The translations under genes and the position numbers were made by a program. The notes beneath the pieces are model-generated. The model saw nothing but the letters and a program-made list of their open reading frames with translations, made no database searches and was not told the origin of the DNA. A stretch of DNA of 64,000 nt from Bacillota bacterium (GTDB taxonomy: Bacteria > Bacillota > Proteinivoracia > UBA4975): assembly GCA_050949165.1 (NCBI GenBank), contig JBMNFF010000001.1:1622-65621 (forward strand). The letters are read 5' to 3'. This document shows, piece by piece, positions 36,980 to 59,183 of this stretch (positions are counted from its first letter, which is position 1; every line of letters begins with the position of its first letter).

Positions 36980-38170
36980 CTACTTATTATTATGGTTATC
37001 CTCTGCCTGCTGAATGAAATAATGCTTACAGGCAAGGGTCAGCAACAGCTGTTTCTCATAATCGCTGATGTCGCCGATAATGCTCTCAATTTGCTTGACC
37101 CGATTATAAACGGTATTTCGGTGCAGGAATAGAGCTTGTCCTGTTGCGGAGATATTGTATGAGTTTTCGCTAAGGGCCATTAAAGTTGCCAATAGCTCGG
37201 TGTTCTGACGTGCATCTGCTTCTGCAAGAGGAGAGATAAGGGTCTGGCAAAGATGGTTCAGGACATAGTGGTTTTGATTGTCGTTCAGGAAAAAATCGAG
37301 GAAGTAATCTTCAAATAAAAATTCCTGTCGCTCCGGATATAATCTCATACCGAGATAGAGAAGCGTGGTAGTGTGAAAGGCTGCTTGATTTAAGTCTAAT
37401 AGGCTATGGCAGGGTGGGCTCATGGCTATTATTGTGTCGTCAAATCCAAGGCAGCGGCGAATAGTGGCAAAGATTACTTGCACAGCTGAAGGATACTCTA
37501 AGTTAAATGTCTCAGGATTACATATCCTGCAGAAAATTAATGTATTACCCTGCATGTCCGAACCTAAGCAACAAGTTTCAACATCTGCAGCACGATCAAT
37601 AGCGCTACTCAGTTCTGACAGCTTCTCCCGAGTAACAGGAGAACTGCTGCGGGCAACTATGATGTATCGCAGGCAGTTCAAGAGCACGCCAAATTTTGAA
37701 GCATTAACGCGAATATCCTTCTCATCGCTTAAATCTCCCCGGATAATTGCGCCAAAAAAACCGTCTAAGGAGCTAAAGCGAAATTTCGAGGAATCGCTGG
37801 CTGCCAGGGTATTTAGCAGTGGCCTTGATATTTCCCTATAACTAAAATGCATGGGAATGCGAATTATTGGGAAGGAATTTTCCTCTGCAATTCTGGCTAC
37901 CCGTTCCGGAATAGACTTTACATACCGACCTAATTTTATGCCGAGACCCGAGCAACCTCGGCGAATCAATGTGCGGACCAGCAGTTCGAGCAGGGCTTCA
38001 TCAGAAGCAAAACAGTAGCCCGTCGTTATTATAAAGTCATTGGCATTAGTCCAGTGCATACCTTCGGGAATCTCGACAACATCGATATAGGCGACGCGAC
38101 GGCTAATTCCTGTTTCTCCATGTAATACGGAAATTTGCTCGTCAAGGCGAAGGATATCTTCTACTATCAT
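36980..38170 (-). CDS. PucR-family transcriptional regulator (purine-catabolism-regulator-like; GGDEF-like middle domain plus C-terminal HTH)
   Basis: C-terminal PucR HTH (...ATGQALFLHRNTVYNRVKQIESI...). The second ATG was chosen because of an AAAGGGGG RBS. Divergent from the M20 hydrolase gene. Confidence 0.7.
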   Translation of the reverse strand: MIVEDILRLDEQISVLHGETGISRRVAYIDVVEIPEGMHWTNANDFIITTGYCFASDEALLELLVRTLIRRGCSGLGIKLGRYVKSIPERVARIAEENSFPIIRIPMHFSYREISRPLLNTLAASDSSKFRFSSLDGFFGAIIRGDLSDEKDIRVNASKFGVLLNCLRYIIVARSSSPVTREKLSELSSAIDRAADVETCCLGSDMQGNTLIFCRICNPETFNLEYPSAVQVIFATIRRCLGFDDTIIAMSPPCHSLLDLNQAAFHTTTLLYLGMRLYPERQEFLFEDYFLDFFLNDNQNHYVLNHLCQTLISPLAEADARQNTELLATLMALSENSYNISATGQALFLHRNTVYNRVKQIESIIGDISDYEKQLLLTLACKHYFIQQAEDNHNNK

Positions 38171-38622
38171 TGCTTTGCCCCCTTTGCCCATTCTATTGGA
38201 ATTATATCAGAGTTATTGTGCACCATGCACAATAAAACCAGCTTTTTTTGTGTTTACTTATCTTGTAAAGGTTTAAAGGCTTAAATTAAAATTTAAAGTA
38301 ACAATATTGTAATATTAGAGTAAGAATATTGCCAAACCTGGTCAGTGTGCTTGGACTTTTGCTGGAGAATTGAGCCAGTTGAAGGGAGGTATGGACTGAA
38401 TGGCCTGCTTACCACACGGCATAGTCTAGCACACCAAACCGCCCAACTTCTTTTGCCATTGTAGGAAAGATTTTGTATAGCTGCATGCCATGCAGGAGGT
38501 TCCAGTGCTCAAAGATGTTAGCGGTGGGCACCAAGTTGCTTGCTTTTTATTTGACTAATAGAAGAAAAGCCTTCTGTAAATTAATTACAGGCGAAAGACC
38601 TCATTACTGAAAGGGGCAAGCT

Positions 38623-39831
38623 ATGAAAAAACAGGATCTACTGGCGCTTGTAGATAAAAAGGCTCTCCGAGCAGTTGAATTGCGCAGGGATATCCACCAA
38701 TATCCCGAATTGAGTGGGCAGGAATGGCGGACAAGTGAGCTTGTGCGCAAAGAACTGGATCGGCTGGGTATCCAGTATCAATCTTGGCCGGACTATACCG
38801 GAGTTGTGGGTTTAATTCCCGGTGCTGGCCAGGGGCCAGTTATTGCCCTGCGTGCAGATATGGATGCTCTACCTATCCTGGAAAAAAGGACAGAACTGCC
38901 CTTTTGCTCAAAGATCCCTGGGGTTATGCACGCTTGCGGCCATGATGTCCATACCGCGATTTTGTTAGGTGCGGCAGCTGTGCTGAAGGAGCTGGCTCCT
39001 CGTCTCCACGGCACTGTGAAATTACTGTTTCAACCCAGCGAGGAAAGCGGAGATAATGGCGCCGCACGCATGGTGGACTTAGGTTGTATGGAGAACCCCA
39101 AAGTGGATAAGGTGTTTGGCATCCACGTGGATGATAGTCGCGAATGTGGGCAATTGGGCACCAAGGCTGGCGCCATCAATTCAGCTTCCGATCATTTTCA
39201 GGTTACGGTCTTGGGCAAATCTACCCATGGCACCAAACCCCAAAAGGGAGTAGATGCCATACATACTGCCTGCCAGATGATTATCAATCTATATACCATG
39301 ATGTCGCGCAGGCTCAGCGCCCTGGATACTGTGTCGGTTAATGTCGGGACCATCTGTGGTGGATCGGCAGATAACATCATTTGCGATAAAGTTGAATTCG
39401 GTATTTCCCTACGCACCGTCAGCAATGAAATTCGTTCTTACATGCATGAGGAAATACGTCAGCTGCTGAAGGATACTGCGCGTTTGAATCGCGCCAAGGT
39501 GGAGATCTCCTTGCGCGAAGGGGCAAGAAGCCAATTCAATGATGAAGGCTGCGTCCAATTGATTGAGAGTGTGGCTGACCTGTTGTACGGGAAAGGCGTT
39601 TACGAGACGAACCCTCACCCGTCTATGGGTTCTGAGGATTTTTCCGAATACTGCAGGGACGGCACGCCTGGAGCGTTGTGGGAACTGGGCGTTCGTAACA
39701 CAGAAAAGGGATGGACGGCAGGGCTGCACAATGATCAATTCTGTCCTGACGAAAGGGCAATACCCATTGGCATTGCAATGCAAAGTGCGATTGTGTACCA
39801 ACTGCTCAGCAAAGATGGACTTGAGGAGTAG
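38623..39831 (+). CDS. M20D-family amidohydrolase (N-acyl-L-amino-acid amidohydrolase/hippuricase/carboxypeptidase-like)
   Basis: [17 protein letters not shown], the metal-binding E..G/H pattern and a dimerisation insert. AAAGGGG RBS. Confidence 0.85.
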
Positions 39832-41785: not shown

Positions 41786-42066
41786 TGCGTATTGCTGACA
41801 TCTTTTCCTCCTGGCTACCAATGTTCCCTCCTGTCATGCAGGCCTTGTACTGTGCTTTGCAACGAGCCCCGCAAAGACAGAAATCACCGGCTGAAGGCGG
41901 AGCTAATCAGCTGAAGCAGCGCAGGCCTATTCAGGAGGGGGGGGTAACAAGTAGGTCCACAGCACGACAAACAGTGCGATGAATGGGGCGAAATTATGCA
42001 AAATAACGTACGCATTTATTGCTTTGCATCGTGCTCCGTGATATTTTATGTTTAGGAGGTGTTAAT

Positions 42067-42831
42067 ATGACATCAGTTGATAGCACTGTAATAACCGCAA
42101 CTGAGTTCAAGCAGAATCTGGGAAAGTATTTTGCTTTCGTGGAAGAGCAGAATGAGGTTGTGATTACCAAGAACGGCAATAAAATTGCCAGGCTCACTCC
42201 TTATGTTACAGATATTGAGCAGTATTTTCTTTTAAGAGAAAAAGCCCTGGACTACCAATATGGTGGAAAAAAGGTTTCTTATGAAGAATTCCTGGAAATC
42301 AATGAAAAGAGCACTCTGAGAATGGAGCTTATCAATGGCGAGATCTATTTGCTGTCATCTCCGAACATCGTGCATCAGGAGCTTCTGGGCCGCTTGCACC
42401 TGCTATTTAACGAATACTTTACTGGCAAGAAATGCAGGGTTTTTCTTGCGCCCTTTGATGTCCATCTGAAAAAGAAGGGCATGAAAACCCCCGATGTCGT
42501 TCAGCCTGATGTGCTGGTAGCCTGTGACCTGGAAGACAAGGTAACTGAAAAGGGACGGTATATGGGAACGCCGGACTTGGTGGTTGAGATTCTCTCCGAA
42601 AGCACGAGGAACAAGGATATGATTGACAAGTTGAACTCGTACATGTTGTCCAAGGTCAGGGAATACTGGCTCGTCGACCCCAAGCAGGAGACAATCATAA
42701 TCTATAGCTTTGAGAATAATGAAATCGATAGGCTGAAGGTGTTTGAGAGAGGGAGTATTGCCCGCTCCATGATATTTGATGGGCTCTCAGCCGATATTGA
42801 TATCCTGTTCAGCGACCTGGTATGGCACTGA
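42067..42831 (+). CDS. Fusion protein: Phd/YefM-type antitoxin-like N-terminal domain plus a Uma2-family (DUF820) PD-(D/E)xK endonuclease domain
   Basis: AGGAGG RBS. The N-terminus ITATEFKQNLGKYFAFVEEQNEVVITKNGNKIARLTPY is Phd/YefM-like. The remainder (ELINGEIY...PDVVQPDVLV...PDLVVEILSEST...EYWLVDP) is Uma2. Confidence 0.65.
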   Translation: MTSVDSTVITATEFKQNLGKYFAFVEEQNEVVITKNGNKIARLTPYVTDIEQYFLLREKALDYQYGGKKVSYEEFLEINEKSTLRMELINGEIYLLSSPNIVHQELLGRLHLLFNEYFTGKKCRVFLAPFDVHLKKKGMKTPDVVQPDVLVACDLEDKVTEKGRYMGTPDLVVEILSESTRNKDMIDKLNSYMLSKVREYWLVDPKQETIIIYSFENNEIDRLKVFERGSIARSMIFDGLSADIDILFSDLVWH

Positions 42832-43161: not shown

Positions 43162-44346
43162 CTATTTGCCGATTAGCTCAAACACGATGCCTGCCTGCAT
43201 CTTCATGCCGGTGGGAACTGTCTCGGGGTCGGCATCGTATTCCGAACTGTGGGTGGGCGCGGTAAATCCCAGTTCTTCATTGCGGCTGCCCAGCTTGTAA
43301 AAGGCGCCGGGCACTTCGGTGCAGTAGTAACAAAAGTCTTCGCAGCCCATGAAGGGACGCTCAACATAGCTGAAGGATTCCGGCCCCAACACCTGCTCGG
43401 CCACCGAGCGAATGATCTCGACGCATTCCGGAGAATTTTGCACGCTGTCATAGTCGGGTTTGCCCTCCACCTCGGCCTGGACGCCGTGCATGGCGCAGGC
43501 ATGCACAATAATGCCGCGCAGGGCGTCGTTGGCCCTTTGCCGGGCCTCGCGGGAGATGGTGCGCACTATTATCGAGAGGGTTGCCTCGTCGGCGATGACA
43601 TTGCTGGCGACGCCACCGGACAGTTTGCCCACCGTGATGACCACGCTGTCATGGGGGGAAACCCGGCGGCTGACCACCGTCTGCAGCTCCATGACAATAC
43701 TGGCCGCCGCCACGATGGCGTCATTGCCCAAGTGGGGCGCACAGCCGTGGGCCTTCTGGCCGCGGATCCTGACGTTGTATGTATCGCTACTGGCATATAA
43801 GGCGCCGGCCTTGGTGCGCAAGGTCCCGCAGGGAATGGCGTCGTCGACGTGCAGGCCGAAGACATAGTCGACATCGGGATTCTTCATGCATCCGGCGGCT
43901 ATCATCCGCTTGGCCCCGCCCCAGGTCTCCTCGGCTGGCTGAAAGAACAGCTTGACATTGCCCCGCAGGTGCTCCCGGGCATCCTGCAGCACCCGGGCGG
44001 TGCCCAGAAGGATTGCGGTATGGACGTCATGGCCACAGGCATGCATCACGCCCTCGTTCTGCGACCGATAGGGCTTGTCTGATCTTTCCGTAATGGGCAG
44101 GGCATCCATGTCGGCCCGCAGGGCGATGGTCTTGCCTGGGGTCGCACCCCGGATGATGCCCACCACTCCCGTCATGCCCGGCACCGGGTAATACTCGATG
44201 CCGGCTTCCTCTAAGCTGGCCTGAATGAATTTCGAGGTTTCAAATTCCTGGTCACTGAGCTCGGGATGGCGGTGCAGATGCTCCCGGGCCGCGATGGCAA
44301 AACTGCGGTGCTTTTCCACCAGTGAGTGCAACATACTGTTCCCCAT
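43162..44346 (-). CDS. M20D-family amidohydrolase (paralog of the 38623..39831 gene)
   Basis: [17 protein letters not shown]..., the same architecture, and convincing paralogy along the whole length. Confidence 0.85.
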   Translation of the reverse strand: MGNSMLHSLVEKHRSFAIAAREHLHRHPELSDQEFETSKFIQASLEEAGIEYYPVPGMTGVVGIIRGATPGKTIALRADMDALPITERSDKPYRSQNEGVMHACGHDVHTAILLGTARVLQDAREHLRGNVKLFFQPAEETWGGAKRMIAAGCMKNPDVDYVFGLHVDDAIPCGTLRTKAGALYASSDTYNVRIRGQKAHGCAPHLGNDAIVAAASIVMELQTVVSRRVSPHDSVVITVGKLSGGVASNVIADEATLSIIVRTISREARQRANDALRGIIVHACAMHGVQAEVEGKPDYDSVQNSPECVEIIRSVAEQVLGPESFSYVERPFMGCEDFCYYCTEVPGAFYKLGSRNEELGFTAPTHSSEYDADPETVPTGMKMQAGIVFELIGK

Positions 44347-44526
44347 GCTTCACCTCTCGCCTTTCTTCTGGTTAAGCACATTTTACCATAGATAGCTCTT
44401 GGCGGGTCAGATAACCCAAGATTTTCTCGCAAGGGGAAGAGGCACGCCGCATAAACCTTCCTAAAGCAGGGATTTGGTAAAATATTGTCGAATGTTGTAC
44501 TATCTCGGATTTCTGGAGGGGATTAT

Positions 44527-46968
44527 ATGCATCTCAACTTAGAGCAGAAGCGACTGATCACCGCCACCCCCAGCGGCGCCACGCTGGTGCGCGGGGTTGC
44601 GGGCTCCGGAAAGACCACTGTTGCCGTGCATCGCGCGGGCTATCTCCTGAATAATTACTGCCTGGGCGAATCCGACCGGGTGCTTTTGGTTACCTATAAC
44701 AAAACCCTGGTCAAGTACCTGCGTCATCTCTATGAGAAGGTCAATGTCGAGGAAGGGGCATATGTCAACCTCTTTGGCCCCAGCCAATCTCAGGTGGACA
44801 TCACGACCATTGACAGCATTTTCTACCGCTATTATTGCAGCCTCTTCCCAAAATCCCAGCGCCGGGAACAGCTGTACGGCAATAACAACAAGAAGTACCA
44901 GGTCATCAGGAACTGTATAGCCGAGTTGGCCAAGAAGTTTGAGGATACCAATATCTTGGACCCCAAGAATGCCAGCTTCCTCTTGGATGAGATAGATTGG
45001 ATTCGCTCCTGCAATTATATGGAGTTATCTGAGTACCAGAATGTCGACCGCCTGGGTCGCCAGAGCTTCACCCAATCTGAAGGTCCCCAGCGGTTGCGCA
45101 AGAATTCCAGAACCCGCCATGCCATCTTCGAGCTGATGCTGGCCTACGATGCCCGTCTGGAGGAAGAGGGGCTCATCGACCCTAAGACCAGGGACATCCT
45201 GGTCTTAAAGAAGGCCCAGGAGCGACCTGAGCCGAAGTACACCCATATCATCGTCGATGAGAGCCAGGACCTGACCCGGGTGCAGCTGGAGTTTCTCAAG
45301 CTGTTGTACAAGCCGGGAGATTATTCCAGCCTCTTCTTCGTGGCGGATACCGCCCAGAGCATCTATCCCCATTCCTGGTTGGTGCGGGGGCGGAGCTTCA
45401 CCAGCTTGGGCCTGGACCTGACGGGCCGTGGCAATGTGCTGAGCAAGAACTACCGGACCACCACCCAGATAGCCCAGGCAGCCTACAGCCTCATTGAGGA
45501 GAACACAGAGATTGTCGAGGACGAGTACTATGTGGAGCCGGCTCTCCTGGACAAGCAGGGCCAGTATCCGGTGTACACGCACTTTACCTCCGAGCAGGAA
45601 GAAGCGGAATATGTTGCCCGGGAAATACACCAATTGCTGAATACATACCGCCCCGGCGAAATCATCGTCATCGCCCGGCTCAATCGGCAGCTGGAAATGG
45701 TCCAGCACGTACTGGAGGAACAGGGCCTGACCTGCCAGCTCTTGAAGGATCGGGAGGCCAGTTTCGACGAAGACTGCATCAAGCTGTTGACCATCCATTC
45801 CATCAAGGGCCTGGAGTTCAAGGTCGTGTTCATCATCGGTCTCAATGATTCCGTCATTCCCCTCATCGCCTACACCGAGATGGACGAAGGTATGCAGGAG
45901 ATTACCGAGCGCAAACTCTTATATGTGGGGATGACCCGGGCTGCTGAGCTCCTGTACATGTCTTCCTGCGCCCAGCCCTCCCGCTTCCTAAAGAGCATCT
46001 CCCCCCAGTACCTGCGCCTGTCCAGCGGCAGCCGCTTCAGCCATCTGTACAATATCCGCCCCGATGAATACCAGTTCGCCGAAAAGATCCTGGACATCTA
46101 CAGCAAGGAAGAGAAGGTCAGGCAGTGGCTGCTCCGGGAGTTGCAGGAAAAGTACAACTATCCCCGGGCCCTGTTGTCGGTGGAGTACAAGGTCAACAAC
46201 ATGTCCCGCACCGGCTCGGTGGACATCTGTATCCAGGTAAGCCGGGACGGCAGGCTGGTGCCCTATATCTTCTGCGAGGTCAAGGCCCCCGGCAGCGGCA
46301 CAAGCCAGGCCCTGGACCAGCTCAAGAGCTATATGAGCAATGCTAAGCATTGCCAGTACGGCCTGGCCACCGACGGCAGGGATATGGTCATCATCGATGC
46401 CGACTTTAATCCCGTTGACGACATCCCGGCCTTTAACCGGTTCATGTTGCCCAGCACCATGGAAAGATACAGCTTCCACTGCTTCACCAGCAAGCGCAAG
46501 TTCAACCTGGTCAGGGACAGCAACCTGTCCCAGGAAGTGATAGTAGAAACCGCTGCCGGCAGCGAGGCCTACAGTGGAGACAAGTTGAAGCTCATTCCCA
46601 CCTATGAGGGGATTGCCGCCGGCCAGCCCATCTACATGCAGGGCAGGAGCGAGGCCAGGTTCTACCTGCCCAGCGAATGGCTGCGGGGCAGGGAGAACTG
46701 CTACCTCCTCCAGGTCAAGGGAGACAGCATGATCGAGGCCGGCATAGATGATCAGGACTATGTCCTTATTCAGCACCAGTCCACCGCCCAAAACAGGGAT
46801 ATCGTGGCCGTGGCCATTGACGATGAGGCCACCCTCAAGCGGTTCGTGCGCATGGGGGATTCGGTGTTGCTGATGCCGGAAAACCCCAAGTATGAGCCCA
46901 TCCAGCTCTCGGACAACCAGGCCAGAATTGTGGGCGTGGCCATTGGGCTGCTGAAGAAAGAGAGTTAA
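44527..46968 (+). CDS. Three-domain protein: UvrD-like SF1 helicase, an HsdR-N/Mrr-like PD-(D/E)xK nuclease module, and a C-terminal LexA-like S24 self-cleaving peptidase domain
   Basis: GGAGGGG RBS plus the ATG giving MHLNLEQKRL. Helicase motifs: GVAGSGKTT (I), IIVDESQDLT (II), NYRTTTQIAQAAYSLI (IV), IHSIKGLEFKVVFIIGL (VI region). Nuclease module: SVDICIQ...IFCEVKAPG...QALDQLKSY. S24 domain: IAAG|QP (Ala-Gly cleavage site), VKGDSM (Ser) and ATLKRF (Lys). Confidence 0.8.
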   Translation: MHLNLEQKRLITATPSGATLVRGVAGSGKTTVAVHRAGYLLNNYCLGESDRVLLVTYNKTLVKYLRHLYEKVNVEEGAYVNLFGPSQSQVDITTIDSIFYRYYCSLFPKSQRREQLYGNNNKKYQVIRNCIAELAKKFEDTNILDPKNASFLLDEIDWIRSCNYMELSEYQNVDRLGRQSFTQSEGPQRLRKNSRTRHAIFELMLAYDARLEEEGLIDPKTRDILVLKKAQERPEPKYTHIIVDESQDLTRVQLEFLKLLYKPGDYSSLFFVADTAQSIYPHSWLVRGRSFTSLGLDLTGRGNVLSKNYRTTTQIAQAAYSLIEENTEIVEDEYYVEPALLDKQGQYPVYTHFTSEQEEAEYVAREIHQLLNTYRPGEIIVIARLNRQLEMVQHVLEEQGLTCQLLKDREASFDEDCIKLLTIHSIKGLEFKVVFIIGLNDSVIPLIAYTEMDEGMQEITERKLLYVGMTRAAELLYMSSCAQPSRFLKSISPQYLRLSSGSRFSHLYNIRPDEYQFAEKILDIYSKEEKVRQWLLRELQEKYNYPRALLSVEYKVNNMSRTGSVDICIQVSRDGRLVPYIFCEVKAPGSGTSQALDQLKSYMSNAKHCQYGLATDGRDMVIIDADFNPVDDIPAFNRFMLPSTMERYSFHCFTSKRKFNLVRDSNLSQEVIVETAAGSEAYSGDKLKLIPTYEGIAAGQPIYMQGRSEARFYLPSEWLRGRENCYLLQVKGDSMIEAGIDDQDYVLIQHQSTAQNRDIVAVAIDDEATLKRFVRMGDSVLLMPENPKYEPIQLSDNQARIVGVAIGLLKKES

Positions 46969-47014
46969 AGAGCCCAGGACCAGTACAGCATGCAATAAAG
47001 GATGGGAAAGAGAT

Positions 47015-47863
47015 ATGAATAATTTTTGGCTTGCTTTTGCGCTGACAACCTTTGCCGGGTTGAGTACAGGTATAGGAAGCTTGCTCGCCTTTTTCACCAA
47101 GAAGAGCAATACCAAGTTCTTGGCGATCAGCCTCGGCTTTTCGGCAGGGGTCATGATCTATGTATCCATGATCGATATTTTCTTTAAAGCTCAGAGCAGC
47201 CTTATTAATGAACTGGGCCCTGAAAAAGGCCGATGGGTAACGGTACTTGCCTTCTTCGGCGGCATGTTCTTAATTGGCATCATCGACAGGCTGATCCCCA
47301 GCTCTGAAAACCCCCATGAGCTCCACTCGGTTGAAGAAATATGTGAAGATTGCCCGGAAGACAGTCACCATATTGAACAGATCAGGAAACGAGAAGAAGC
47401 GGAAAAAAACCAGAAGCTCCTGCGCATGGGCCTTTTCACCGCACTTGCCATTGCCATTCACAACTTCCCTGAAGGCCTGGCCACATTTGTCGCTGCCCTG
47501 CAAGAACCGAAAGTGGCAATTCCCATTGCCATAGCGATTGCGATTCATAACATTCCTGAAGGAATAGCAGTATCCGTCCCCATATTCTATGCCACCGGAA
47601 GCAGAAAGAAAGCCTTTTTCTATTCGTTCTTATCCGGGTTCTCCGAACCCATAGGCGCCCTGGTAGGCTACCTGATATTATTGCCCTTTATGAGCGACCT
47701 TTTAGTGGGGATTATCTTTGCCCTTGTGGCGGGCATCATGGTCTTTATTGCTCTGGATGAACTGCTCCCGTCGTCGCGGGAGTATGGCGAACATCATCTG
47801 TCCATCTATGGCCTGGTTGTTGGCATGATGGTAATGGCCGTCAGCTTGCTGATATTTGTCTAG
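47015..47863 (+). CDS. zupT: ZIP-family zinc/divalent-metal permease (ZupT-like)
   Basis: Two HNFPEGLA/HNIPEGIAV motifs, eight TM helices and a His-rich loop. Confidence 0.85.
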   Translation: MNNFWLAFALTTFAGLSTGIGSLLAFFTKKSNTKFLAISLGFSAGVMIYVSMIDIFFKAQSSLINELGPEKGRWVTVLAFFGGMFLIGIIDRLIPSSENPHELHSVEEICEDCPEDSHHIEQIRKREEAEKNQKLLRMGLFTALAIAIHNFPEGLATFVAALQEPKVAIPIAIAIAIHNIPEGIAVSVPIFYATGSRKKAFFYSFLSGFSEPIGALVGYLILLPFMSDLLVGIIFALVAGIMVFIALDELLPSSREYGEHHLSIYGLVVGMMVMAVSLLIFV

Positions 47864-47889
47864 GCATAAGCATGGCGATGTTGCAAAAA

Positions 47890-47938
47890 GGGAAGGCATC
47901 TTAGTTGAACAAGCCTTCCCCTTTGTTTTAGTTGAAGC
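47890..47938 (+). terminator. Terminator GGGAAGGC-N25-GCCTTCCC followed by CTTTGTTTT
   Basis: Seen in the sequence. Confidence 0.5.
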
Positions 47939-48131
47939 CCTGATAGAGATAGGGACATTGACTGTTCCATAGCACAGTGGGGCTGTGAGAAACATCGAAG
48001 ACTGCAAATTATCGGATTCCAGGGGCTGCTGAAGAAAGAGATAGGGTAGTTGTTATGCTCGCCCCAAAGCCGCATATCTAGAGTATGATTACATTAGAAC
48101 GAGTCAGCTAATGAGAGGGGCAGAACTTTTA

Positions 48132-48800
48132 ATGAAAGACTTTACCATTCGCTTGGCCCGTTTAATATTAGGGCTGCTCCTGTATGCCTTGGGGATTGCC
48201 AGCACTCTAAAAGCCCAGTTAGGCTATGCACCCTGGGATGTTTTCCATGTTGGTGTTGCCATGACCACGGGTATAAGCATTGGCACTGCCACAATTATCG
48301 TCGGAGTCGTTATTATAGCTACCGTCATGCTGCTAAAAGAAAAAATCGGCCTCGGAAGCCTGGCAAATATGCTATTGGTAGGCGTTTTCCTGGATGCAAT
48401 CCTTATGCTTAACATTTTACCTTCTGCAAACTATTTGTTTTCGGGGCTCCTTATGCTGATAGCCGGCTTATTCTCCATTGCGTTTGGTTCGTATTTCTAC
48501 ATCAGTTCAGCCTTTGGTGCTGGACCAAGGGACAGCCTCATGGTCGCTCTGGCCAGAAAGACCGGGTTGCCCATAGGGGTATGCCGTGCTGCTGTTGAAC
48601 TTGCTGCCTTGTTCTTTGGCTGGCGTCTAGGTGGGATGGTTGGCATTGGCACAGTCTTATCTGCCCTGCTAATTGGGTTTTGCGTCCAGTTGGTATTTAA
48701 GATATTAAAGTTTGATGCCACGGTAATCCGGCACCAGACCCTCAGGGAAACCTATAAAGCTATCCTATCGTCCCGGGTGCATAACAAGGGCAACGACTAA
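48132..48800 (+). CDS. YczE/YitT-like small polytopic membrane protein
   Basis: Six TM helices. The in-frame ATG at 48111 is an alternative start. Confidence 0.5.
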   Translation: MKDFTIRLARLILGLLLYALGIASTLKAQLGYAPWDVFHVGVAMTTGISIGTATIIVGVVIIATVMLLKEKIGLGSLANMLLVGVFLDAILMLNILPSANYLFSGLLMLIAGLFSIAFGSYFYISSAFGAGPRDSLMVALARKTGLPIGVCRAAVELAALFFGWRLGGMVGIGTVLSALLIGFCVQLVFKILKFDATVIRHQTLRETYKAILSSRVHNKGND

Positions 48801-49162
48801 TGTGCCAAGGGCACCTCGATTTAATGTGGAAATATGTATGCAGGAAATCATCTAATAGCAACTGCCCCTTGGGGGTCGTTGCTATTTCTGTACAGGGGGA
48901 GAGACCGTGATAACCCGCTTCGAGTCCATCAATAAACATAAAGTATGGCTGATGTGGCGCACAGCTATTTATCCTGACCCACAATCAACAAATCTCCTGG
49001 CAGGTCGGGGCCTGGTTTGAAAATGATATGAACATAGATACATCGGCCAGCTATTATAAGCCAAATTGCACCGCCACAAGCAGTGGTCGCAATTCAAAGT
49101 TGGTGATACTAGATGATTAGCCGTATTAGATGCAACCAACCTAACTAAAGGGAGGGAAGAAA

Positions 49163-49879
49163 GTGATATCTGTCGCCACCTGGAACATGGATTACTGGAA
49201 GCGCAAGAAGGAGCAGCGCCAAGCGGCCTGGACCTATTTAACTGAAGAAATTCGCCCCGACATTGCCTTACTCCAAGAGTGCAAGCCGCCTCCTGTCATG
49301 AATAGGGAGTATAATATTATTTACCATGAAATAGGTGGTGCTAGAAATTGGGGGTCGGCGGTGCTGGCCCGCAGTTATACCATAAAGGAGGTCGAATTTG
49401 AAAACAGCCACCCCGGTTGTGTGGTGGCTGCAGAAATAGAAATACTAGGTATCACTTTGACAGCAATCAGCGTATACGGGATGTTGTGCAAGCATAATTA
49501 CGCAACTACGACGATGCACAGAATCCTTTCCGACTTGACTCCTTTAATCCATGGCCAGCGGAATAGACGCACTTTCATAATGGGTGGCGATTACAACGTA
49601 AGCACTCAGTGGGACGAACGCTATAAGCACCGCGATCCTTCTCACCAGTTGGTTTTCGACAGGATTGAGGATTTCAGATTGGTGAACTGCACTCTTCAAT
49701 ACTTCGGAAAGCACGTTCAGACCAACCACCATGCTAGGAGCAATTATCCATGGCAGAATGACTATCTGCATGCTTCAAAAAAGCTCGCGGCCAAGTTGGT
49801 GTCATGCGAGGTATTTGGTGAGGAGGAGATAAGAGAGTTTAGTGATCATTTGCCCGTATTAGCTCATTTTGCTTTCTAG
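49163..49879 (+). CDS. Endonuclease/exonuclease/phosphatase (EEP) family protein, copy 1
   Basis: GTG start after AAGGGAGGGAAG. ATWNMDYW, ..IALLQE.. and a C-terminal SDHLPV hallmark. About 85% identical to the 59678..60394 product. Confidence 0.75.
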   Translation: MISVATWNMDYWKRKKEQRQAAWTYLTEEIRPDIALLQECKPPPVMNREYNIIYHEIGGARNWGSAVLARSYTIKEVEFENSHPGCVVAAEIEILGITLTAISVYGMLCKHNYATTTMHRILSDLTPLIHGQRNRRTFIMGGDYNVSTQWDERYKHRDPSHQLVFDRIEDFRLVNCTLQYFGKHVQTNHHARSNYPWQNDYLHASKKLAAKLVSCEVFGEEEIREFSDHLPVLAHFAF

Positions 49880-50049
49880 TTTTCAATTGCCTCTAAATCG
49901 AATTGAAAAGCCCCGGAGGTAAAGTAGGATGGAGGAATGCTATGGGTATTAAAGATGTTATTGTGAGGAATGAAGCTGCAATTAAACAGTACCTTGAACT
50001 TGGGTATGTAAATGAAAAGGATCTACTCAAACGTCAGTAGTGTGTGATA

Positions 50050-51395
50050 TTGTCTGTAAAAGTGGATCCTTAATTTAAAGGGCCATCGCCCTCTGGTAAA
50101 ATGGAAGTGTCAGAAACAACCAATTACTGGAGGGATTGCGATGACCCGTATTAATCTTACCTTATCCGAGGAAACTTTGCACCACCTAATTTCCGGGGAT
50201 GATAAAGGAATTTCTATGTTGCTGAGAGAGGCCCTGAACCAGATTCTAGAGCACCAAAGGACTGAGCAGATTGAGGCTGCCCGTTATGAGCGAACCGAAA
50301 CTCGTCGGGGTTTGCGGAACGGCTACAAGCCTAGAAAACTTAACACCCGGGTAGGGACCCTAAACCTTCGGGTTCCCCAAATACGGGATGGCGTTTTTTC
50401 TACCGAGCTGTTTAGAAGATACCAGCGTAGTGAGCAGGCTCTAGTGCTTGCCCTTATGGAAATGGTGGTTAATGGGGTATCTACCCGTAAGGTGGCAAGA
50501 ATCACCGAGGAGCTATGTGGAACTGAGTTCTCAGCTTCAACTGTGTCTAGCTTATGCAAGCAATTAGACCCCATCGTGGAGGGGTGGAAAAACCGCAGCT
50601 TGGCTGGACAAGCCTTCCCCTTTGTCCTGGTGGATGCCCTCGTCATAAAGCTTAGGGATAATGGCCGAGTTCGTCCTCATAGTACTATGTTGGCAATCGG
50701 GATAAACGCCGAGGGCAACAGAGAGATTTTGGGGTTTCAAGTAGGAGACAGTGAGTCAGAGTCCAGCTGGACAGACTTTTTTAATTCCCTAAAAAACCGA
50801 GGTCTATCTGGGATAGACCTGGTTGTCTCCGATGACCACAGAGGGCTTGTAAACGCCGTACAGACCTGTTTCCAGGGGGTAACCTGGCAAAGGTGCCAAA
50901 CTCACTTTACCAAGAACATACTGGATAAATGCCCAAAATCATTACAGGCTGAATTGAAAGCCAGGCTCCGTACAGTATTTGAGGCGAACGACACCGAAAC
51001 GGCACGGAAGTTGGCCAAGGGTATTCACGAAGAATATGCTGATAAAGCCGCTAGGGCTGTAGAGACTCTGGACCAGGGGTTTGAGGATGCCATTGCGGTG
51101 CTGGCACTACCTGAGTACTATCGGCGAAAACTAAGGACCACCAACAGCGTGGAGCGGCTCAACGAAGAGATCCGCCGCAGGGAAAGGGTCATAAGGATAT
51201 TTCCAAATCCTGAATCGGCAGTAAGGCTGATAGGAGCGGTACTGATGGAACACCATGAGGAGTGGAGCGAAGGACGACGATACTTTGACATGAGCTCGTA
51301 CTGGTCTTGGAAAAAAGAGCAAGAATCAGCCGGTAAAAACGATTGCCGGATAAGTGCATAGATACAGTTTTGCCAGAGGCAATTTTACAGACAAA
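50050..51395 (+). mobile_element. IS256-family insertion sequence (~1.35 kb)
   Basis: Imperfect terminal inverted repeats TTGTCTGTAAAAGTGG (left) and GCAATTTTACAGACAA (right) flank the transposase gene. No clean target-site duplication was seen. Confidence 0.7.
50141..51361 (+). CDS. IS256-family (mutator-type) transposase
   Basis: 406 aa with the D...D...E core (..VLVDALVIKLR.., SDDHRGL, ..NSVERLNEEIRRR..). Confidence 0.92.
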   Translation: MTRINLTLSEETLHHLISGDDKGISMLLREALNQILEHQRTEQIEAARYERTETRRGLRNGYKPRKLNTRVGTLNLRVPQIRDGVFSTELFRRYQRSEQALVLALMEMVVNGVSTRKVARITEELCGTEFSASTVSSLCKQLDPIVEGWKNRSLAGQAFPFVLVDALVIKLRDNGRVRPHSTMLAIGINAEGNREILGFQVGDSESESSWTDFFNSLKNRGLSGIDLVVSDDHRGLVNAVQTCFQGVTWQRCQTHFTKNILDKCPKSLQAELKARLRTVFEANDTETARKLAKGIHEEYADKAARAVETLDQGFEDAIAVLALPEYYRRKLRTTNSVERLNEEIRRRERVIRIFPNPESAVRLIGAVLMEHHEEWSEGRRYFDMSSYWSWKKEQESAGKNDCRISA

Positions 51396-51485
51396 ATTGG
51401 ACTTGACCGTAGCGAAGATACGCTCGGTATTGACTTATGATTAAATAAATGTTACTGTATATTCAATTTTACTTAGGAAGAAAAA

Positions 51486-52097
51486 TTGGAGGAACAAATG
51501 AATATTAAGAAGTATTTTTCTAATAACACTGCAATTTTAACTATTATTTGTATTAATCTGATTGTCTTTATCGCAATAAACGCTTTTCCCAATCTTCGTG
51601 AAATTCTTTTATTAAATGCTGATCCCAAAATAATGTTAGAAAAACCATGGACTTTATTTACGGTCTTTTTTTCTCATGAGCTGCTGATACATATTCTATT
51701 AAACATGGTTTTGGTTTTTATCTTTGGTACTGAGCTCTATAAAGAAACAAATGCAAAGGTAGTTTATCTTGTTTATATCCTTTGTGGATTTATTGGTAGT
51801 TTATCAATCTTTATATATGCTCCTTTAATCGGATATAATGGAGGATTAATCGCAGGAGCTTCTGCAGCAGCGTTTGGGATTGTTGCAACTTATGTTATAC
51901 TGCAGCCCAATACTATGATATTAGGATCAAAGGCAAAATACTGGTTGATAGCATTATTTATTGTGAATGCTATTTTAACCATAAGAGATCCCTTGGTTTC
52001 TGTTGGCGGCCCGGCTCATGCGGTAGGTATTATAGTAGGATTGCTTTTAGGCTTGCTGCTGAAGAAAAAGCAAGTCGCAAAGAGCGGCAATGAGTGA
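51486..52097 (+). CDS. Rhomboid-family intramembrane serine protease
   Basis: Six TM helices, a GASAAAFG (GxSG) catalytic Ser and a downstream AHAVGIIVG His. The region has very low GC. Confidence 0.8.
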   Translation: MEEQMNIKKYFSNNTAILTIICINLIVFIAINAFPNLREILLLNADPKIMLEKPWTLFTVFFSHELLIHILLNMVLVFIFGTELYKETNAKVVYLVYILCGFIGSLSIFIYAPLIGYNGGLIAGASAAAFGIVATYVILQPNTMILGSKAKYWLIALFIVNAILTIRDPLVSVGGPAHAVGIIVGLLLGLLLKKKQVAKSGNE

Positions 52098-52132
52098 CTT
52101 TCACATAATACAAGAGATGTAGAGGATAAAGC

Positions 52133-52876
52133 ATGAAAAATCATAGTACTAAAAGAACAACGATTTTGGCAGTACTGCTATCGGTATTCTTATTTCAACA
52201 AGCCGCCAGCAAAATTGGTAAATATGTTGCTAATATTTTTGATTACAGCTTAATAGATAGTTATAATGTTTTTGCCTGGATTTCTGTGCACCACATTGTA
52301 CAGACACTTTTAGCTTTGGTGCCCATTATCATACTATCAAAAATTTATAACATCGATTTTGGTTTCCGTTTAGGAGATAAAAAAACAGGTTTAAAACTTA
52401 TTAGGATATACACAATTGCGATGTTAGTATATATAACTTTTACATCTGTTATAACCTATTTTGGCAATCAAATTGTTCAATATGATTATCCGTTAACTAT
52501 GACAAACATTTTAGGCTCATTGGGATTTCAACTTTTCTTGACGGGCCCTTCTGAAGAAATTCTATTCCGTGCTCTGCCGATTTCAATATTCGCTTGCGTT
52601 ATATCGAGTGAAAAAGGCATAAAAACAGGGAAACTGCACATTTCATGGCCCAATATTATTGCTGCGATATTTTTTGCTCTCGCACATATCAAATGGACCA
52701 TAAGCCCATTTTCCGTAAGCTTTGAATATATGCAACTGCTATTTTCATTAGTTTTAGGAATAATGTATGGAATCGTATATGAGAAAAGTAAAAGTGTAAT
52801 CTATCCGATGATAATGCATAGTTTGACCAACGTGGCAGTCGTTGGGGCGGGATACATATTATCTATTCTCAAGTAA
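52133..52876 (+). CDS. CPBP-family intramembrane metalloprotease (CAAX protease/Abi, bacteriocin-immunity type)
   Basis: EEILFRALP (EExxxR), FALAHI and HSLTNV motifs. Eight TM helices. Confidence 0.8.
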   Translation: MKNHSTKRTTILAVLLSVFLFQQAASKIGKYVANIFDYSLIDSYNVFAWISVHHIVQTLLALVPIIILSKIYNIDFGFRLGDKKTGLKLIRIYTIAMLVYITFTSVITYFGNQIVQYDYPLTMTNILGSLGFQLFLTGPSEEILFRALPISIFACVISSEKGIKTGKLHISWPNIIAAIFFALAHIKWTISPFSVSFEYMQLLFSLVLGIMYGIVYEKSKSVIYPMIMHSLTNVAVVGAGYILSILK

Positions 52877-53100
52877 ATGCTTTTATTCGAATCACTAATG
52901 GTATCCGTCAGTCGCACAAAATTATAAAAGCCGCTATTTTAGCGGCTATTTTTATATAACGGAACTTATTGCTTAGTCGACGGTTTGAAAGAAACCTAAC
53001 CATAGTATATGTTCCCGCTTACTGATAGTGAAAAAGTGTCTCGGACATTTCCGAAAACGGGGGAGGGCAGGGGACATCTACACAATTCTATTAAAGTAAA

Positions 53101-53329
53101 TCAATCCCCCGAAACACGTACTTCTGCACCGGATTCACGTAGAATTTTTGTCCAATACTCAATAAATTCCTTGCCCGAAGGGATGTTATCATCGGTTTTG
53201 AGACCAAGTACTCTGCTTTTGCCCACTCCGAGATTATGATAGGGCATGATCTCTGCATAACGATAGCTGCCCATATGTTTTTTTAAAAAATCCCTGAGTG
53301 TTTGTTGTAGACTAGTTTTACCGGGAATT
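53101..53329 (-). pseudogene. C-terminal ~75-aa fragment of a glycyl-radical-enzyme activating (radical SAM, PflA-like) protein, truncated by the IS21 insertion
   Basis: ...IPGKTSLQQTLRDFLKKH....MPYHNLGVGKSRVLG...PSGKEFIEYWTKILRESGAEVRV matches the PflA/activase C-terminus. The upstream part of the ORF runs into IS21 terminal-repeat DNA. Confidence 0.6.
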
Positions 53330-53463
53330 GCATGATAGGTTCCCCGGAAATTGCAAAGTAAAATTCCCTGTTTTTGCAGATAGAGAAGGCCATTGCAGCA
53401 GCCCCATAGAAACCTACCCTTGTAACGCCAATCACGAGGGAGGTAATTAGGAGGATGCTGACA

Positions 53464-54984
53464 ATGGCGCAAATTAATTGTATCAGAGAAATGTACTTTG
53501 AGAAAGGCATGAATTATGCCAGCATAGCAAGAGCCACAGGACATGATGTAAAGACAGTTAAGAAATACATCAACATGAAAGACTTTACTCAACCGCTTCC
53601 CAAACCAGCTAAAAAACGCGGGTCTAAGTTGGACAAGTATAAAGAGGAGATAGATAGCTGGTTGGAAGCAGATAAGCAGGCCCGCAAGAAACAGCGCCAC
53701 ACTGCGCGCAGAGTCTTCGATCGGCTGGCTGGAATTTATGGTCCTGAATTCAACTGTTCTTACCGGCTGGTCGCTGCGTATGTAGCAGAACGTAAGAAGG
53801 CGCTATACAGTCAGGAAACCCAATTTTTTATGCCTCTGGAACATATCCCGGGAGAGGCGCAAGTAGACTTTGGCGAAGCAGATTTTTATGAGGGCAATGA
53901 ACTCTGCAACGGCTATTACTTGAATCTCTCTTTCCCCAATAGCAATGGCGGTTACCTGCAGCTGTTCAAAGGGCAGAACATGCAATGCCTGGCCGAAGGG
54001 CTGATGAACATCTTTGCCCACTTGGGCGGCGTACCAACCAGGCTCTGGTTCGATAACCTTTCTCCAGCAGTAAAGAAAATCCTGAAAAACCATGGGCGGG
54101 AACTGACAGATTCGTTCCTGCGTTTCAAGAATCACTACGGATTTATTGCTGCGTTTTGCAACCCCGAGAGCGGTCATGAAAAAGGCAATGTGGAGAACAA
54201 AGTGGGCTACCATCGGCGCAATCTGTTGGTGCCCATCCCCCGGATAGATGACCTAAGAGCATTTAATCGCCAACTGCTTGAGAAATGCGATCGAGATATG
54301 CAAAGGCCACATTACAAGAAGGCGCTGCTGATTCAAGAGCTGTTCTTTGAGGACCGAAAAGCGCTGCTGCCACTGCCCGCTGTCCCCTATGATGAATCCG
54401 AGATTAAGAAGGTGCGCACTAACAGTTACGCTAAGTTCACATTAAATGATGGGAAGCACACTTACTCCACCGCTCCCCGTTACGCCAACAGCGAAGTATT
54501 CGTAAGGTTGACCGCTCATGACGTCATTGTTCTGGACGAGAGCTACAGGGAGGCAATTAGGCACCCCCGCCTCTACGGTAAAGAGAACAAGGAATCCATG
54601 GACTGGCTGCCATATTTGGCCCAACTGGCCCGCCGACCTGCGGCCCTAAAATACACCGGTATCTATCCCATGCTCCCTGAACCTATACAGGATTTCCTGG
54701 ACAACTGCGACTACTCGAGCAAGAAGGAAGCCTTGACAGTCTTGGCCAAGCTCAGCGAGGCAAGTGGGTTTAACAAGGCTACTGAAGCCTTCTTGACGGC
54801 CTTGGAACACGGTGTAAGCGATGCCGACAGCATCATAGCTATGTTTAGTCGACTTAACTGCGAAGTCCTAGACCTGGATCCCCTAATCCTGCCGGCCAGT
54901 GTTCCCGACATGCCCCAAGTACAAGCTAACGTAGCTGAATATGACCGCTTGTTCTTGAGTGAAGGTGGTATTCATGAAAGCTGA
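53464..54984 (+). CDS. istA: IS21-family transposase IstA
   Basis: N-terminal HTH (MAQINCIREMYFEKGMNYASIARATGHDVKTVKKY) plus the DDE core. Confidence 0.92.
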   Translation: MAQINCIREMYFEKGMNYASIARATGHDVKTVKKYINMKDFTQPLPKPAKKRGSKLDKYKEEIDSWLEADKQARKKQRHTARRVFDRLAGIYGPEFNCSYRLVAAYVAERKKALYSQETQFFMPLEHIPGEAQVDFGEADFYEGNELCNGYYLNLSFPNSNGGYLQLFKGQNMQCLAEGLMNIFAHLGGVPTRLWFDNLSPAVKKILKNHGRELTDSFLRFKNHYGFIAAFCNPESGHEKGNVENKVGYHRRNLLVPIPRIDDLRAFNRQLLEKCDRDMQRPHYKKALLIQELFFEDRKALLPLPAVPYDESEIKKVRTNSYAKFTLNDGKHTYSTAPRYANSEVFVRLTAHDVIVLDESYREAIRHPRLYGKENKESMDWLPYLAQLARRPAALKYTGIYPMLPEPIQDFLDNCDYSSKKEALTVLAKLSEASGFNKATEAFLTALEHGVSDADSIIAMFSRLNCEVLDLDPLILPASVPDMPQVQANVAEYDRLFLSEGGIHES

Positions 54985-55702
54985 AATTGCTGAGTGCTGC
55001 CGCCGCCTTCGCTTAAGCAAGAACATAGCAGAAATCTCCGACCAAGTTGAAGCTGACAGCTACCAGGAGTACCTGCTTAAGGTCCTGAAGCAAGAGGTTG
55101 CATACAGGGAAACAACCCGCAAGAACCGTCTGGTAAAACAAGCTGGTTTCTACAACTTGAAAACCTTTGATGGTTACAGCTTTGACGAAATTCGGTTGCC
55201 AACAGAGCTCTCAATTGCCGATTTAAAAGAAGTGAACTTCGTCAGGCAACAGAAGAACCTCATCTTCTACGGCAATGTAGGCACCGGCAAGACCCACCTC
55301 GCCACGGCCATAGGGATTGAAGCATGCAATAGAGGTCTATCTGTTCGGTTCTTCCGCACAGCAGCCCTGGTCAACCAACTCAGCGATGCACAGAAAAAAG
55401 GCGAGCTCAATAAACTTCTGAAACAATTAGCAAAGGCTGATCTGTTAATCTGCGATGAATGGGGATATGTCCCCCTGGACCGAGACGGTTCCAAGCTCTT
55501 GTTCCAGGTAATTTCAGACCGCTACGAGCAAAGGAGTGTGATCATCACTACCAATCTTGAATTTAGCAAGTGGGTAAACATTTTCTATGATGAGCAGATG
55601 ACGGCTGCCATGATCGACCGCTTAGTTCACCACAGCTACCTGCTATTATTCGATGGACAGAGTTACCGGATTAGGAAATCATTGATGAAAGGCTACGCAT
55701 AA
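54959..55702 (+). CDS. istB: IS21-family helper ATPase IstB
   Basis: NLIFYGNVGTGKTHLA (Walker A) and DEWGY (Walker B). Overlaps istA. Confidence 0.92.
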   Translation: MKVVFMKAEIAECCRRLRLSKNIAEISDQVEADSYQEYLLKVLKQEVAYRETTRKNRLVKQAGFYNLKTFDGYSFDEIRLPTELSIADLKEVNFVRQQKNLIFYGNVGTGKTHLATAIGIEACNRGLSVRFFRTAALVNQLSDAQKKGELNKLLKQLAKADLLICDEWGYVPLDRDGSKLLFQVISDRYEQRSVIITTNLEFSKWVNIFYDEQMTAAMIDRLVHHSYLLLFDGQSYRIRKSLMKGYA

Positions 55703-55776
55703 ATTCCCTGGCGGGGTTGTTGCAAGGGAAGTTTGCAAACACAGGGAAAAAGAGCTTGCAAAAAACAACTATTTGA

Positions 55777-58933: not shown

Positions 58934-59139
58934 CGAGAATGGGGCCAGGTCCGACCAAGGCTTTTACTCAGATGAAGGAGGGTTGCTATAGGGAGGCCTG
59001 GTCGTATTAACCCTCGAGCTTATGCGGAATGTGTACCTAAGGTTTTGGGTGGCAAGGGGCTTATGCAACAGGGATTCAAATGTGTCCTAGAGTTAGCAAT
59101 GCCATGGCTACTAGAGGTATAGCAGCAGAGGCTGTGTAA

Positions 59140-59183
59140 TGCGGAATGGACGCCAGAGGGGGGTACTTACCTCCATGGCGTCC
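59140..59183. terminator. Strong palindrome AATGGACGCCA-N19-TGGCGTCCATT (possible bidirectional terminator)
   Basis: An 11-bp perfect stem, about 200 nt downstream of the GmrSD gene and at the stop of the minus-strand ORF. Confidence 0.4.

Follow-up and report, generated by a model that had tools for sequence, protein, structure and literature searches.

A UvrD-like helicase and restriction-type nuclease joined to a LexA-type S24 self-cleavage module in Bacillota

What does a self-cleavage module of the SOS-repressor type do at the end of a DNA helicase-nuclease? This question is raised by one gene in a 64,000-nt stretch, hereafter the window, of contig JBMNFF010000001.1 from a Bacillota bacterium (assembly GCA_050949165.1). 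In the S24 proteins characterised so far, the self-cleaving module governs either a DNA-binding repressor (LexA, phage cI-type, SetR-type) or the small subunit UmuD; in the protein described here it is joined directly to an ATP-driven nuclease machine. An earlier note, made from the letters of the window, had described an 813-aa product fusing a superfamily 1 (SF1) helicase, a PD-(D/E)xK nuclease and a complete LexA-type self-cleavage module, and had read it as a sensor of DNA damage or phage infection. We found the open reading frame (ORF) on the plus strand, each quoted motif at its position in the protein, and the three-domain parse correct. The ATG at 44527 is the likely start, giving the 813-aa product, because a GGAGG lies just 5' of it (Table 1).

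The protein was scanned with Pfam profiles, and all four domains found exceed the curated cut-offs: UvrD-helicase (residues 3-280, 1.1e-23), UvrD_C (406-482, 5.8e-30), HSDR_N_2 (527-634, 4.9e-22) and Peptidase_S24 (692-806, 3.1e-31). A full-length AlphaFold2 model, built on an alignment of 115 homologues, confirmed the folds with a mean predicted local distance difference test (pLDDT) score of 85.7 and a predicted template modelling (pTM) score of 0.75. When this model was compared with the PDB by Foldseek, the top matches were UvrD (2is4, E 3e-27), PcrA (1pjr) and Rep (1uaa), with E values between about 1e-27 and 1e-23; AddA, AdnB and RecB came next, at 1e-20 to 1e-15. The helicase core is about 495 residues long, as against 620-650 in UvrD, PcrA and Rep, and also holds KNYRTT at residues 307-312. 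By its SF1 motifs and its fold it belongs to the UvrD/PcrA/Rep superfamily SF1A. No orthology to a known SF1 helicase was found, since all scores stayed below the NCBIfam equivalog cut-offs (pcrA 137 vs 911, uvrD 123 vs 1144, rep 113 vs 951, HelD 104 vs 419 and helicase IV 71 vs 543). Against the PADLOC models (2023), the best matches were C3a187 'NERD+UvrD' (5.3e-42) and GajB (3.4e-38), both over the helicase part, and the best 25 of 50 matches were all confined to this region.

The nuclease that follows is of the HsdR N-terminal kind. It passes the PF13588 threshold, carries the D...(D/E)-x-K signature and adopts the restriction-endonuclease fold, with the motifs GSVDIC (residues 563-568), FCEVKA (582-587) and QLKSY (598-602). 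Its structural matches were an HsdR fragment (3h1t, 10.2), the type IIG enzymes BpuSI (9.9) and DrdV (8.5), EcoR124I HsdR (7.2) and Cas4 (7.0).

After the nuclease and ahead of the cleavage site, the AlphaFold2 model places a conserved unit that had been missed before, made of strands at residues 645-652, 657-664, 667-675 and 678-683. This beta linker is common to a set of shorter helicase-S24 proteins described below, whose match starts at about residue 642; solved LexA chains match only from about 678-699. Whether the C-terminal region has an S24 fold was a question raised by the earlier note, and both profile and fold confirm that it does. Its nearest relatives by sequence are LexA C-domains (M. 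tuberculosis, 4.7e-21), then UmuD (1e-11), then cI (8e-3). The profile match, the Ser/Lys pair (in VKGDSMI, residues 730-736, and EATLKRF, 767-773) and an Ala-Gly bond in a mobile loop make it a peptidase of the S24 family. In the model, the loop holding Ala698-Gly699 has a pLDDT of 54-67, as would be expected if it moves like the cleavage loop of LexA. Cleavage at this bond is predicted to yield fragments with computed masses of 80.3 kDa, ending -GIAA, and 13.0 kDa, the latter being the S24 domain. An AAG at residues 675-677 was considered as a second cleavage site and rejected, as it is not conserved in the family.

To place the protein in a family, 5.8 billion proteins were searched for full-length homologues. 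At least 115 were found, about 805-840 aa long, 47-99% identical and sharing the Pfam architecture of this protein. Besides many metagenomes, they stem from Clostridium, Heliomicrobium, Carboxydocella, Syntrophocurvum, Defluviitalea and Tepidanaerobacteraceae, under source names as varied as 'repressor LexA', 'SOS regulatory protein LexA', 'S24 family peptidase', 'UvrD-helicase domain-containing protein' and 'DNA helicase PcrA'. Conservation was counted in an alignment of 116 sequences. Ser734 and Lys771 are present in 116/116, Ala698 in 115/116 and Gly699 in 114/116, so that the complete Ala-Gly/Ser/Lys set noticed earlier is kept family-wide, and the loss of this triad in homologues, which the same note had named as a counter-sign, is not the pattern seen. 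In the nuclease, E528, E529, D566, K586 and Q598 are invariant and E584 is kept in at least 90%. Because the catalytic residues of helicase, nuclease and S24 domain are invariant or nearly so, all three activities are, judged from the alignment, under selection. Dimerisation alone needs no Ala-Gly/Ser/Lys, so the retention of this chemistry speaks for more than dimerisation. Self-cleavage in vivo is likely.

Table 1. Features of the fusion gene in the window, and of NERD + HRDC genes at other family loci (positions within each locus)
Feature	Position	Strand	Basis or remark
Mechanical ORF, 827 aa from upstream TTG	44485(TTG)..46968	+	
Ribosome-binding site GGAGG, 7 nt ahead of ATG 44527	44515..44519	+	Read from sequence
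Whole gene, helicase-nuclease-S24 fusion, 813 aa, 93.3 kDa, TAA stop included	44527..46968	+	ORF list, Pfam, homologues
Compact UvrD/PcrA/Rep-type SF1A helicase core with short accessory (1B/2B) regions, residues 1-495	44527..46011	+	Pfam, Foldseek
Motif I / Walker A GVAGSGKTT, residues 23-31	44593..44619	+	G23, G26, G28, K29 invariant in 116 sequences
Motif II IIVDESQDL, residues 241-249	45247..45273	+	D244, E245, Q247, D248 invariant in 116 sequences
Motif VI LLYVGMTRA, residues 464-472, arginine finger R471	45916..45942	+	Y466-R471 invariant in 116 sequences
PD-(D/E)xK nuclease, HsdR N-terminal type, residues 527-634; catalytic D566, E584, K586; also E528, E529, Q598	46105..46428	+	
Beta linker, residues 642-690, four predicted strands	46450..46596	+	AlphaFold2 model
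S24 (LexA/UmuD/cI-type) self-cleaving serine peptidase domain, residues 692-806	46600..46944	+	PF00717 above threshold
Predicted scissile bond Ala698-Gly699 in YEGIAA/GQPI (residues 693-702)	46618..46623	+	Aligns with E. coli LexA Ala84-Gly85
Nucleophile Ser734	46726-46728	+	Aligns with LexA S119
General base Lys771	46837-46839	+	Aligns with LexA K156
NERD + HRDC genes	L014 8906-9985; L015 8918-9988; L016 8855-9964; L022 6863-7930		

We then looked at how the parts are combined in nature. An exhaustive HMMER search with residues 495-813 only, run against 1.84 billion cluster representatives, gave 82 matches at E <= 1e-30; a pooled set of 160 (the best 150 plus ten cluster members) was classed with family-specific hidden Markov models (HMMs). 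It contains 33 entries of the long form, with helicase, nuclease and S24, some of them fragments, and 61 entries with helicase and S24. Of the latter, 56 are a short form of about 440-580 aa, in which the first ~310 family-HMM positions of this helicase, the stretch with Walker A and motif II, are followed by the beta linker seen in the window protein and by an S24 domain 40-48% identical to its own. Short-form sequences keep Ala-Gly, Ser and Lys in 56/56 and the Walker A Lys in 52/56, and their motif II is degenerate; they are stand-alone genes without helicase domain 2A and without the nuclease, and some are annotated LexA. By sequence they have no evident enzymatic output. Examples among the 56 cluster representatives (50% identity) are P0150, P0154, P0163 and P0278 (WP_021285551.1, Clostridium punense, annotated LexA), with the loci L090 and L091. 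A few full helicase-S24 proteins without nuclease were also present (P0229, P0213), as were seven helicase-nuclease entries without S24. These S24-less variants mostly end exactly at the nuclease boundary (query residue ~640) and keep all helicase motifs, with the nuclease triad kept in 3/6. Variants of this kind are L032, L035, L037, L039, P0179, P0208 and P0217, L039 (Clostridium aquiflavi) being a helicase only, of 517 aa. Since the S24-less forms stop at a domain boundary and the short form keeps linker and S24, the S24 unit is a regulatory module added to the enzyme, and it moves together with the N-half of the helicase and a linker of its own. The search also returned P0225/P0280 (733 aa, JGI metagenome), in which a caspase (Peptidase_C14) is followed by an S24 domain and then by a LexA DNA-binding domain with a second S24; this is either a further case of an effector fused to S24, with a LexA attached, or the product of gene calls run together.

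Does the gene work with a partner? No conserved partner gene was found when 225 neighbours from 29 loci were clustered all-against-all, the largest clusters having six members and being generic (ABC ATPases, AAA-ATPase/PDDEXK_9 proteins). A further 150 homologue neighbours match 177 different Pfam families, many of them housekeeping. Two candidates were rejected: the ZIP transporter 47 nt downstream in the window, which recurs in 0/28 other loci, and a 185-aa ORF just 3' of the family gene at two loci (L005 and L009), where the two ORFs are unrelated. Four loci carry a gene for a protein of about 360 aa with NERD and HRDC domains, in the same orientation as the family gene and separated from it by 12-36 nt; it precedes the family gene in three Clostridium species and follows it in one Bacillota metagenome-assembled genome (MAG). 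Its product may be a lineage-specific partner, and recalls the PADLOC candidate 'NERD+UvrD'.

In the window, the neighbours of the fusion gene are a divergent M20 peptidase on one side and the ZIP transporter on the other. The gene sits at the edge of a lower-GC region (0.37-0.48 over 47000-62500, vs ~0.59 in the first 30 kb). That this region is accessory and rich in mobile elements, as previously noticed, holds: it has an IS256-type transposase (50141-51361), an IS21 IstB, a Mu-type transposase-like ORF, a GmrSD_N protein (57113-58933), two EEP nucleases (49163-49879 and 59606-60394) and UvrD-like fragments, together with rhomboid and CAAX proteases. The Mu-type ORF (53455-54984, 509 aa) has weak Mu-transposase and TnsD matches, and IstB lies next to it at 54959-55702. 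Overlapping the end of the IstB ORF on the minus strand is a 213-aa N-terminal fragment of a UvrD-like helicase (55671-56312), as if the insertion had disrupted a helicase gene; a further UvrD-like ORF (489 aa) is found at 60747-62216. On the other side of the fusion gene, two M20 peptidase paralogues (38623-39831, plus strand, and 43162-44346, minus strand) flank S-Me-THD-like, AroM and Phd-Uma2 genes. The last is a single ORF (42019-42831, plus strand) joining a Phd/YefM antitoxin domain to Uma2, a putative restriction endonuclease, and homologues of it lie near the family gene at two other loci (L005, L015). A PucR-type regulator is encoded at 36980-38191 on the minus strand.

Across the family, defence, restriction or toxin genes are neighbours at roughly a third or more of the surveyed loci, by our own descriptive count. 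Near the family gene we found Mrr, GmrSD and an SNF2 helicase in Syntrophocurvum; HNH, PLD-DEAD-DUF3427 and MmeI-type enzymes in C. bovifaecis; an E1-JAB-PycTM cluster in Heliomicrobium; GIY-YIG, PLD-DEAD-DUF3427 and JetD on one metagenome contig; SIR2, a GIY-YIG-Schlafen helicase and NERD-HRDC in C. zeae; SIR2-STAND and NERD-HRDC in C. tagluense; and a zeta toxin in C. uliginosum. In Desulfosarcina alkanivorans the gene follows RecQ-like-PRTase and DprA/SLOG-like genes and precedes an HNH gene, and other loci have Lamassu, ThsA, JetD, PDC and other PADLOC candidate systems. The idea of a defence island therefore stands in part: many homologues lie in islands and no conserved housekeeping synteny was seen, but the setting is not universal, the Ilyobacter locus and several others being ordinary.

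The distribution of the gene was examined in 185,579 species genomes, one per species; the prevalence given is a lower bound. At least 80 loci were recovered, at least 31 of them with all three domains, the latter spanning Clostridium, Lachnospiraceae, Tissierellales, Planococcus, Planomicrobium, Paenisporosarcina and Halalkalibacillus. Two copies occur in one MAG. Desulfobacterota members were found on the Desulfosarcina alkanivorans chromosome (L017) and in a Desulfosarcinaceae MAG (~46% identity), and a Fusobacteriota copy (WP_013389202.1, 42% identity) lies among housekeeping neighbours on the 962-kb replicon pILYOP01 of Ilyobacter polytropus. The full-length members outside Bacillota (L017, L018 and the Ilyobacter copy, L093), at 42-46% identity, point to transfer between phyla. 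That replicon is also the sole full-length match on a plasmid, and no full-length copy was found by tblastn in 50,697 phage records. Two of the partial phage-record matches that start near residue 651-654 (H18 and H20) were set aside as ordinary winged helix-turn-helix (wHTH)-LexA genes in unverified records. The records MT835640.1 (L094) and OR846651.1 (L095), labelled phage and UNVERIFIED, hold ordinary bacterial-type wHTH-LexA genes, and a neighbour ORF in the second encodes a large Cys-rich protein without obvious phage character; they are probably bacterial DNA in phage bins. Synteny is strong only among very close species and erodes fast, being partly kept in related Planococcus and Clostridium. 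Such behaviour marks an accessory gene that now and then moves between genomes, and not a gene for core repair.

We also asked whether the gene is under transcriptional SOS control. The SOS box GAAC-N4-GTTC has no match anywhere in the window, and the 250 nt upstream of 33 family genes contain 0 perfect Firmicute LexA boxes and 1 with a single mismatch, below the background rate. Transcriptional SOS control was rejected on the lack of a LexA box at these 33 loci. Without such a box, control would be post-translational and damage sensing, if any, would fall to the pre-made protein.

The mechanism that we infer, with its cleavage, trigger, dimerisation, switch direction and defence role, would be as follows. 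A UvrD-like ATP-driven motor would carry the restriction-type PD-(D/E)xK nuclease, and the C-terminal S24 domain would keep the protein dimeric, to judge from LexA, lambda cI and UmuD. A DNA-damage or single-stranded DNA (ssDNA) signal, most simply RecA* (the RecA-ssDNA-ATP filament), would move the Ala698-Gly699 loop into the Ser734/Lys771 site, and the self-cut would separate the 80-kDa motor-nuclease, ending -IAA, from the 13-kDa S24 domain. If the cut turns the enzyme off, the switch would be a built-in restriction alleviation sparing the damaged host chromosome. Our overall reading, which we put forward tentatively, is an enzyme for DNA surveillance or defence, encoded by a lone and horizontally mobile gene and fitted with a one-shot S24 switch, with a leaning towards off. 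Taken separately, a role in defence or against invader DNA is somewhat probable, the chances that RecA* is the trigger are even, and cleavage switching the enzyme off is, by analogy, slightly favoured over its switching it on. The domains, the triad, the context and the lack of a published description stand from the interpretation in the earlier note, whereas its RecA* trigger and an activation by cleavage are not established.

Several lines argue for the off direction. LexA and cI, which cleavage inactivates, have the same order of cargo, Ala-Gly bond and S24 domain. The new -IAA end would resemble the latent ClpX degron of cleaved LexA, whose -VAA end is reportedly a ClpX signal. UvrD-type motors must dimerise to unwind, and loss of S24 would separate the dimerisation domain; for UvrD1, dimerisation is reported to activate unwinding. 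HsdR offers an established case of a nuclease-motor shut off by proteolysis, which happens when host DNA is at risk. Moreover, the freed enzyme would be no indiscriminate toxin, because S24-less helicase-nuclease genes with intact helicase motifs persist in nature.

Other points weigh against this reading. Self-cleavage itself is deduced from the sequence of the protein. The off direction rests on analogy and leaves the nuclease-less short form unexplained. The defence association is partial, with a wholly ordinary Ilyobacter locus and many housekeeping neighbours, and the RecQ-like, DprA-like and NERD-HRDC neighbours suit a role in recombination or repair equally well. As for RecA*, the LexA pocket that receives RecA F203 is formed by V79, V82, F111, L113, V146 and V153 (LexA-RecA* study). 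These residues map to conserved hydrophobic positions here (Y/F693, I696, F/Y726, L728, A/V761 and A768), but the same positions belong to the fold core, so that their conservation is weak evidence for RecA binding. In the same LexA-RecA* study, replacing the LexA N-domain with the 42-kDa maltose-binding protein (MBP) blocked RecA*-dependent but not alkaline cleavage, and a longer linker rescued it partly. Because the cargo is 80 kDa here and is joined through a folded beta linker, RecA* docking is doubtful and may, by this comparison, be sterically blocked.

A way round this difficulty, although an unlikely one, is that the SF1 motor of the protein itself, with its two RecA-like domains loaded with ssDNA and ATP, replaces RecA* as the co-protease for S24, in cis or across the dimer. 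This would explain why S24 is always tied to the helicase N-half and beta linker in long and short forms, how an 80-kDa cargo is tolerated and why the SOS box is lacking. If true, cleavage would report a motor engaged on abnormal DNA, with no need of host RecA, and S24-gated enzymes (long form, short form, caspase-S24) would make up a class, so far overlooked, of immune or stress proteins triggered by proteolysis.

Could cleavage arm the enzyme instead? In the strongest rival to an off switch, S24 and the beta linker restrain the helicase-nuclease, and self-cleavage induced by RecA* or ssDNA, which would arise from phage replication or DNA damage, frees the 80-kDa enzyme to degrade phage DNA, or all DNA. 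The same architecture, conservation and defence context speak for it, sensor-to-effector is a common logic of defence systems, and UmuD is a precedent for an S24 cleavage that activates. The pTM of 0.75 suggests a defined inter-domain packing, which in the model could be inhibitory. Further precedents are AbpAB, which is activated by DNA damage or a phage single-stranded DNA-binding protein (SSB), and Nhi and Hachiman, which phage SSB is thought to activate. However, the cargo lies N-terminal to the Ala-Gly bond, in the topology where cleavage inactivates LexA and cI; several species keep S24-less helicase-nuclease genes with intact motifs, which means that an unattached enzyme is not lethal in itself and would need no brake; no immunity or antitoxin partner was seen among the clustered neighbours; and the nuclease-less short form is left unexplained here too. 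We regard activation as possible but rather doubtful.

A role as a recombination or repair factor seems quite improbable. UvrD, PcrA and Srs2 dismantle RecA or Rad51 filaments, and S24 proteins bind in the RecA filament groove; the S24 domain could accordingly dock on a RecA* filament and bring the translocase-nuclease to strip filaments or process intermediates, cleavage being a timer for the release or retirement of the enzyme. A RecQ-family helicase is found within four genes at 4 loci, a DprA-like gene at 1 and an adjoining NERD-HRDC gene at 4, some loci are housekeeping-only, and synteny is partly kept in the related Planococcus and Clostridium. On the other hand, the family is rare and patchy (the at least 31 three-domain loci among 80 kept from the species scan) and crosses phyla, it is outside the SOS regulon by the LexA-box test, it carries a nuclease of restriction-enzyme type (HsdR/type IIG), Mrr, GmrSD, MmeI, SIR2, STAND and Lamassu are frequent neighbours, and the RecQ-like neighbours are themselves in clusters resembling defence islands. 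Still less credible is that S24 is a dimerisation module or relic with no regulated cleavage, on a plain dimeric helicase-nuclease. The S24 domains of LexA, cI and UmuD do dimerise, and the S24-less variants show the domain to be dispensable for the enzyme core, but Ala-Gly/Ser/Lys are kept in 114-116/116 long-form and 56/56 short-form sequences, two families only ~40% identical in the S24 module. Finally, the identity given in many database entries, a LexA repressor, can be dismissed in spite of those names and of 107.1 bits with the NCBIfam lexA model (TIGR00498), since this is below the 110.95 cut-off and covers only the C-terminal model positions 78-201, no LexA_DNA_bind or helix-turn-helix (HTH) match exists, and residues 1-640 are helicase and nuclease.

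If cleavage is confirmed, the protein would be the first case of an enzyme whose activity the SOS-type signal itself sets after translation. It would then offer a simple, genetically tractable model for keeping a defence or surveillance nuclease off the damaged host chromosome, or for arming one by infection; it would also test whether something other than RecA* drives S24 cleavage, a long-standing co-protease question. In Clostridia, Planococcaceae and other groups, many entries called 'LexA repressor' or 'S24 family peptidase' are the long or short form and need re-annotation, because mislabelled entries can distort LexA gene counts and inferences on SOS regulons.

How does this architecture compare with known systems? 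It appears to be undescribed, as had been suspected: no published helicase or nuclease fused to S24 was found in the full-text literature searched, which leaves most subscription journals outside its coverage, and a 2026 review of anti-phage nuclease control makes no mention of LexA, SOS or self-cleavage. In LexA and cI the cargo of the S24 domain is a 7-12-kDa DNA-binding domain and in UmuD a 24-residue arm, whereas here it is an 80-kDa ATPase-nuclease, with a conserved beta unit added before the cleavage site, no HTH and a score below the lexA equivalog cut-off. AddA, RecB and AdnB, which are among the structural matches, likewise have a helicase followed by a PD-(D/E)xK nuclease on one polypeptide; they have no S24 domain, and the motor of the fusion protein is much shorter, its nuclease is of the HsdR-N/type IIG rather than the RecB kind, and it has no partner subunit gene. 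Its NCBIfam scores (addA 56 vs 708, recB 46 vs 696) and the lack of a conserved partner place it outside AddA and RecB. HsdR has an SF2 motor and is proteolysed by ClpXP; here the motor is SF1A, the nuclease is C-terminal to it and the proteolysis would be self-inflicted. ResIII reaches 17 bits, below its cut-off, and no methyltransferase or specificity gene adjoins it in the window. Nhi, GajB, Hachiman, AbpAB and C3a187, systems of one or two genes, also combine a UvrD-like helicase with a nuclease in defence islands, and several of them respond to phage SSB or DNA damage, but none is reported with an S24 or self-cleaving module; no GajA-like neighbour was found in the window, nor among the most frequent PADLOC families listed for the 150 homologue neighbours. 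A further likeness is to the short-form helicase-S24 proteins, which share the helicase lineage, beta linker and S24 domain and differ in lacking 2A and the nuclease and in their degenerate motif II. By sequence, then, the protein belongs to the S24, SF1A and PD-(D/E)xK superfamilies and is not LexA, PcrA, UvrD, Rep, AddA, RecB, HsdR or GajB: the parts are familiar, and what is new is the wiring, a self-cleaving switch of the SOS type set directly on an enzyme.

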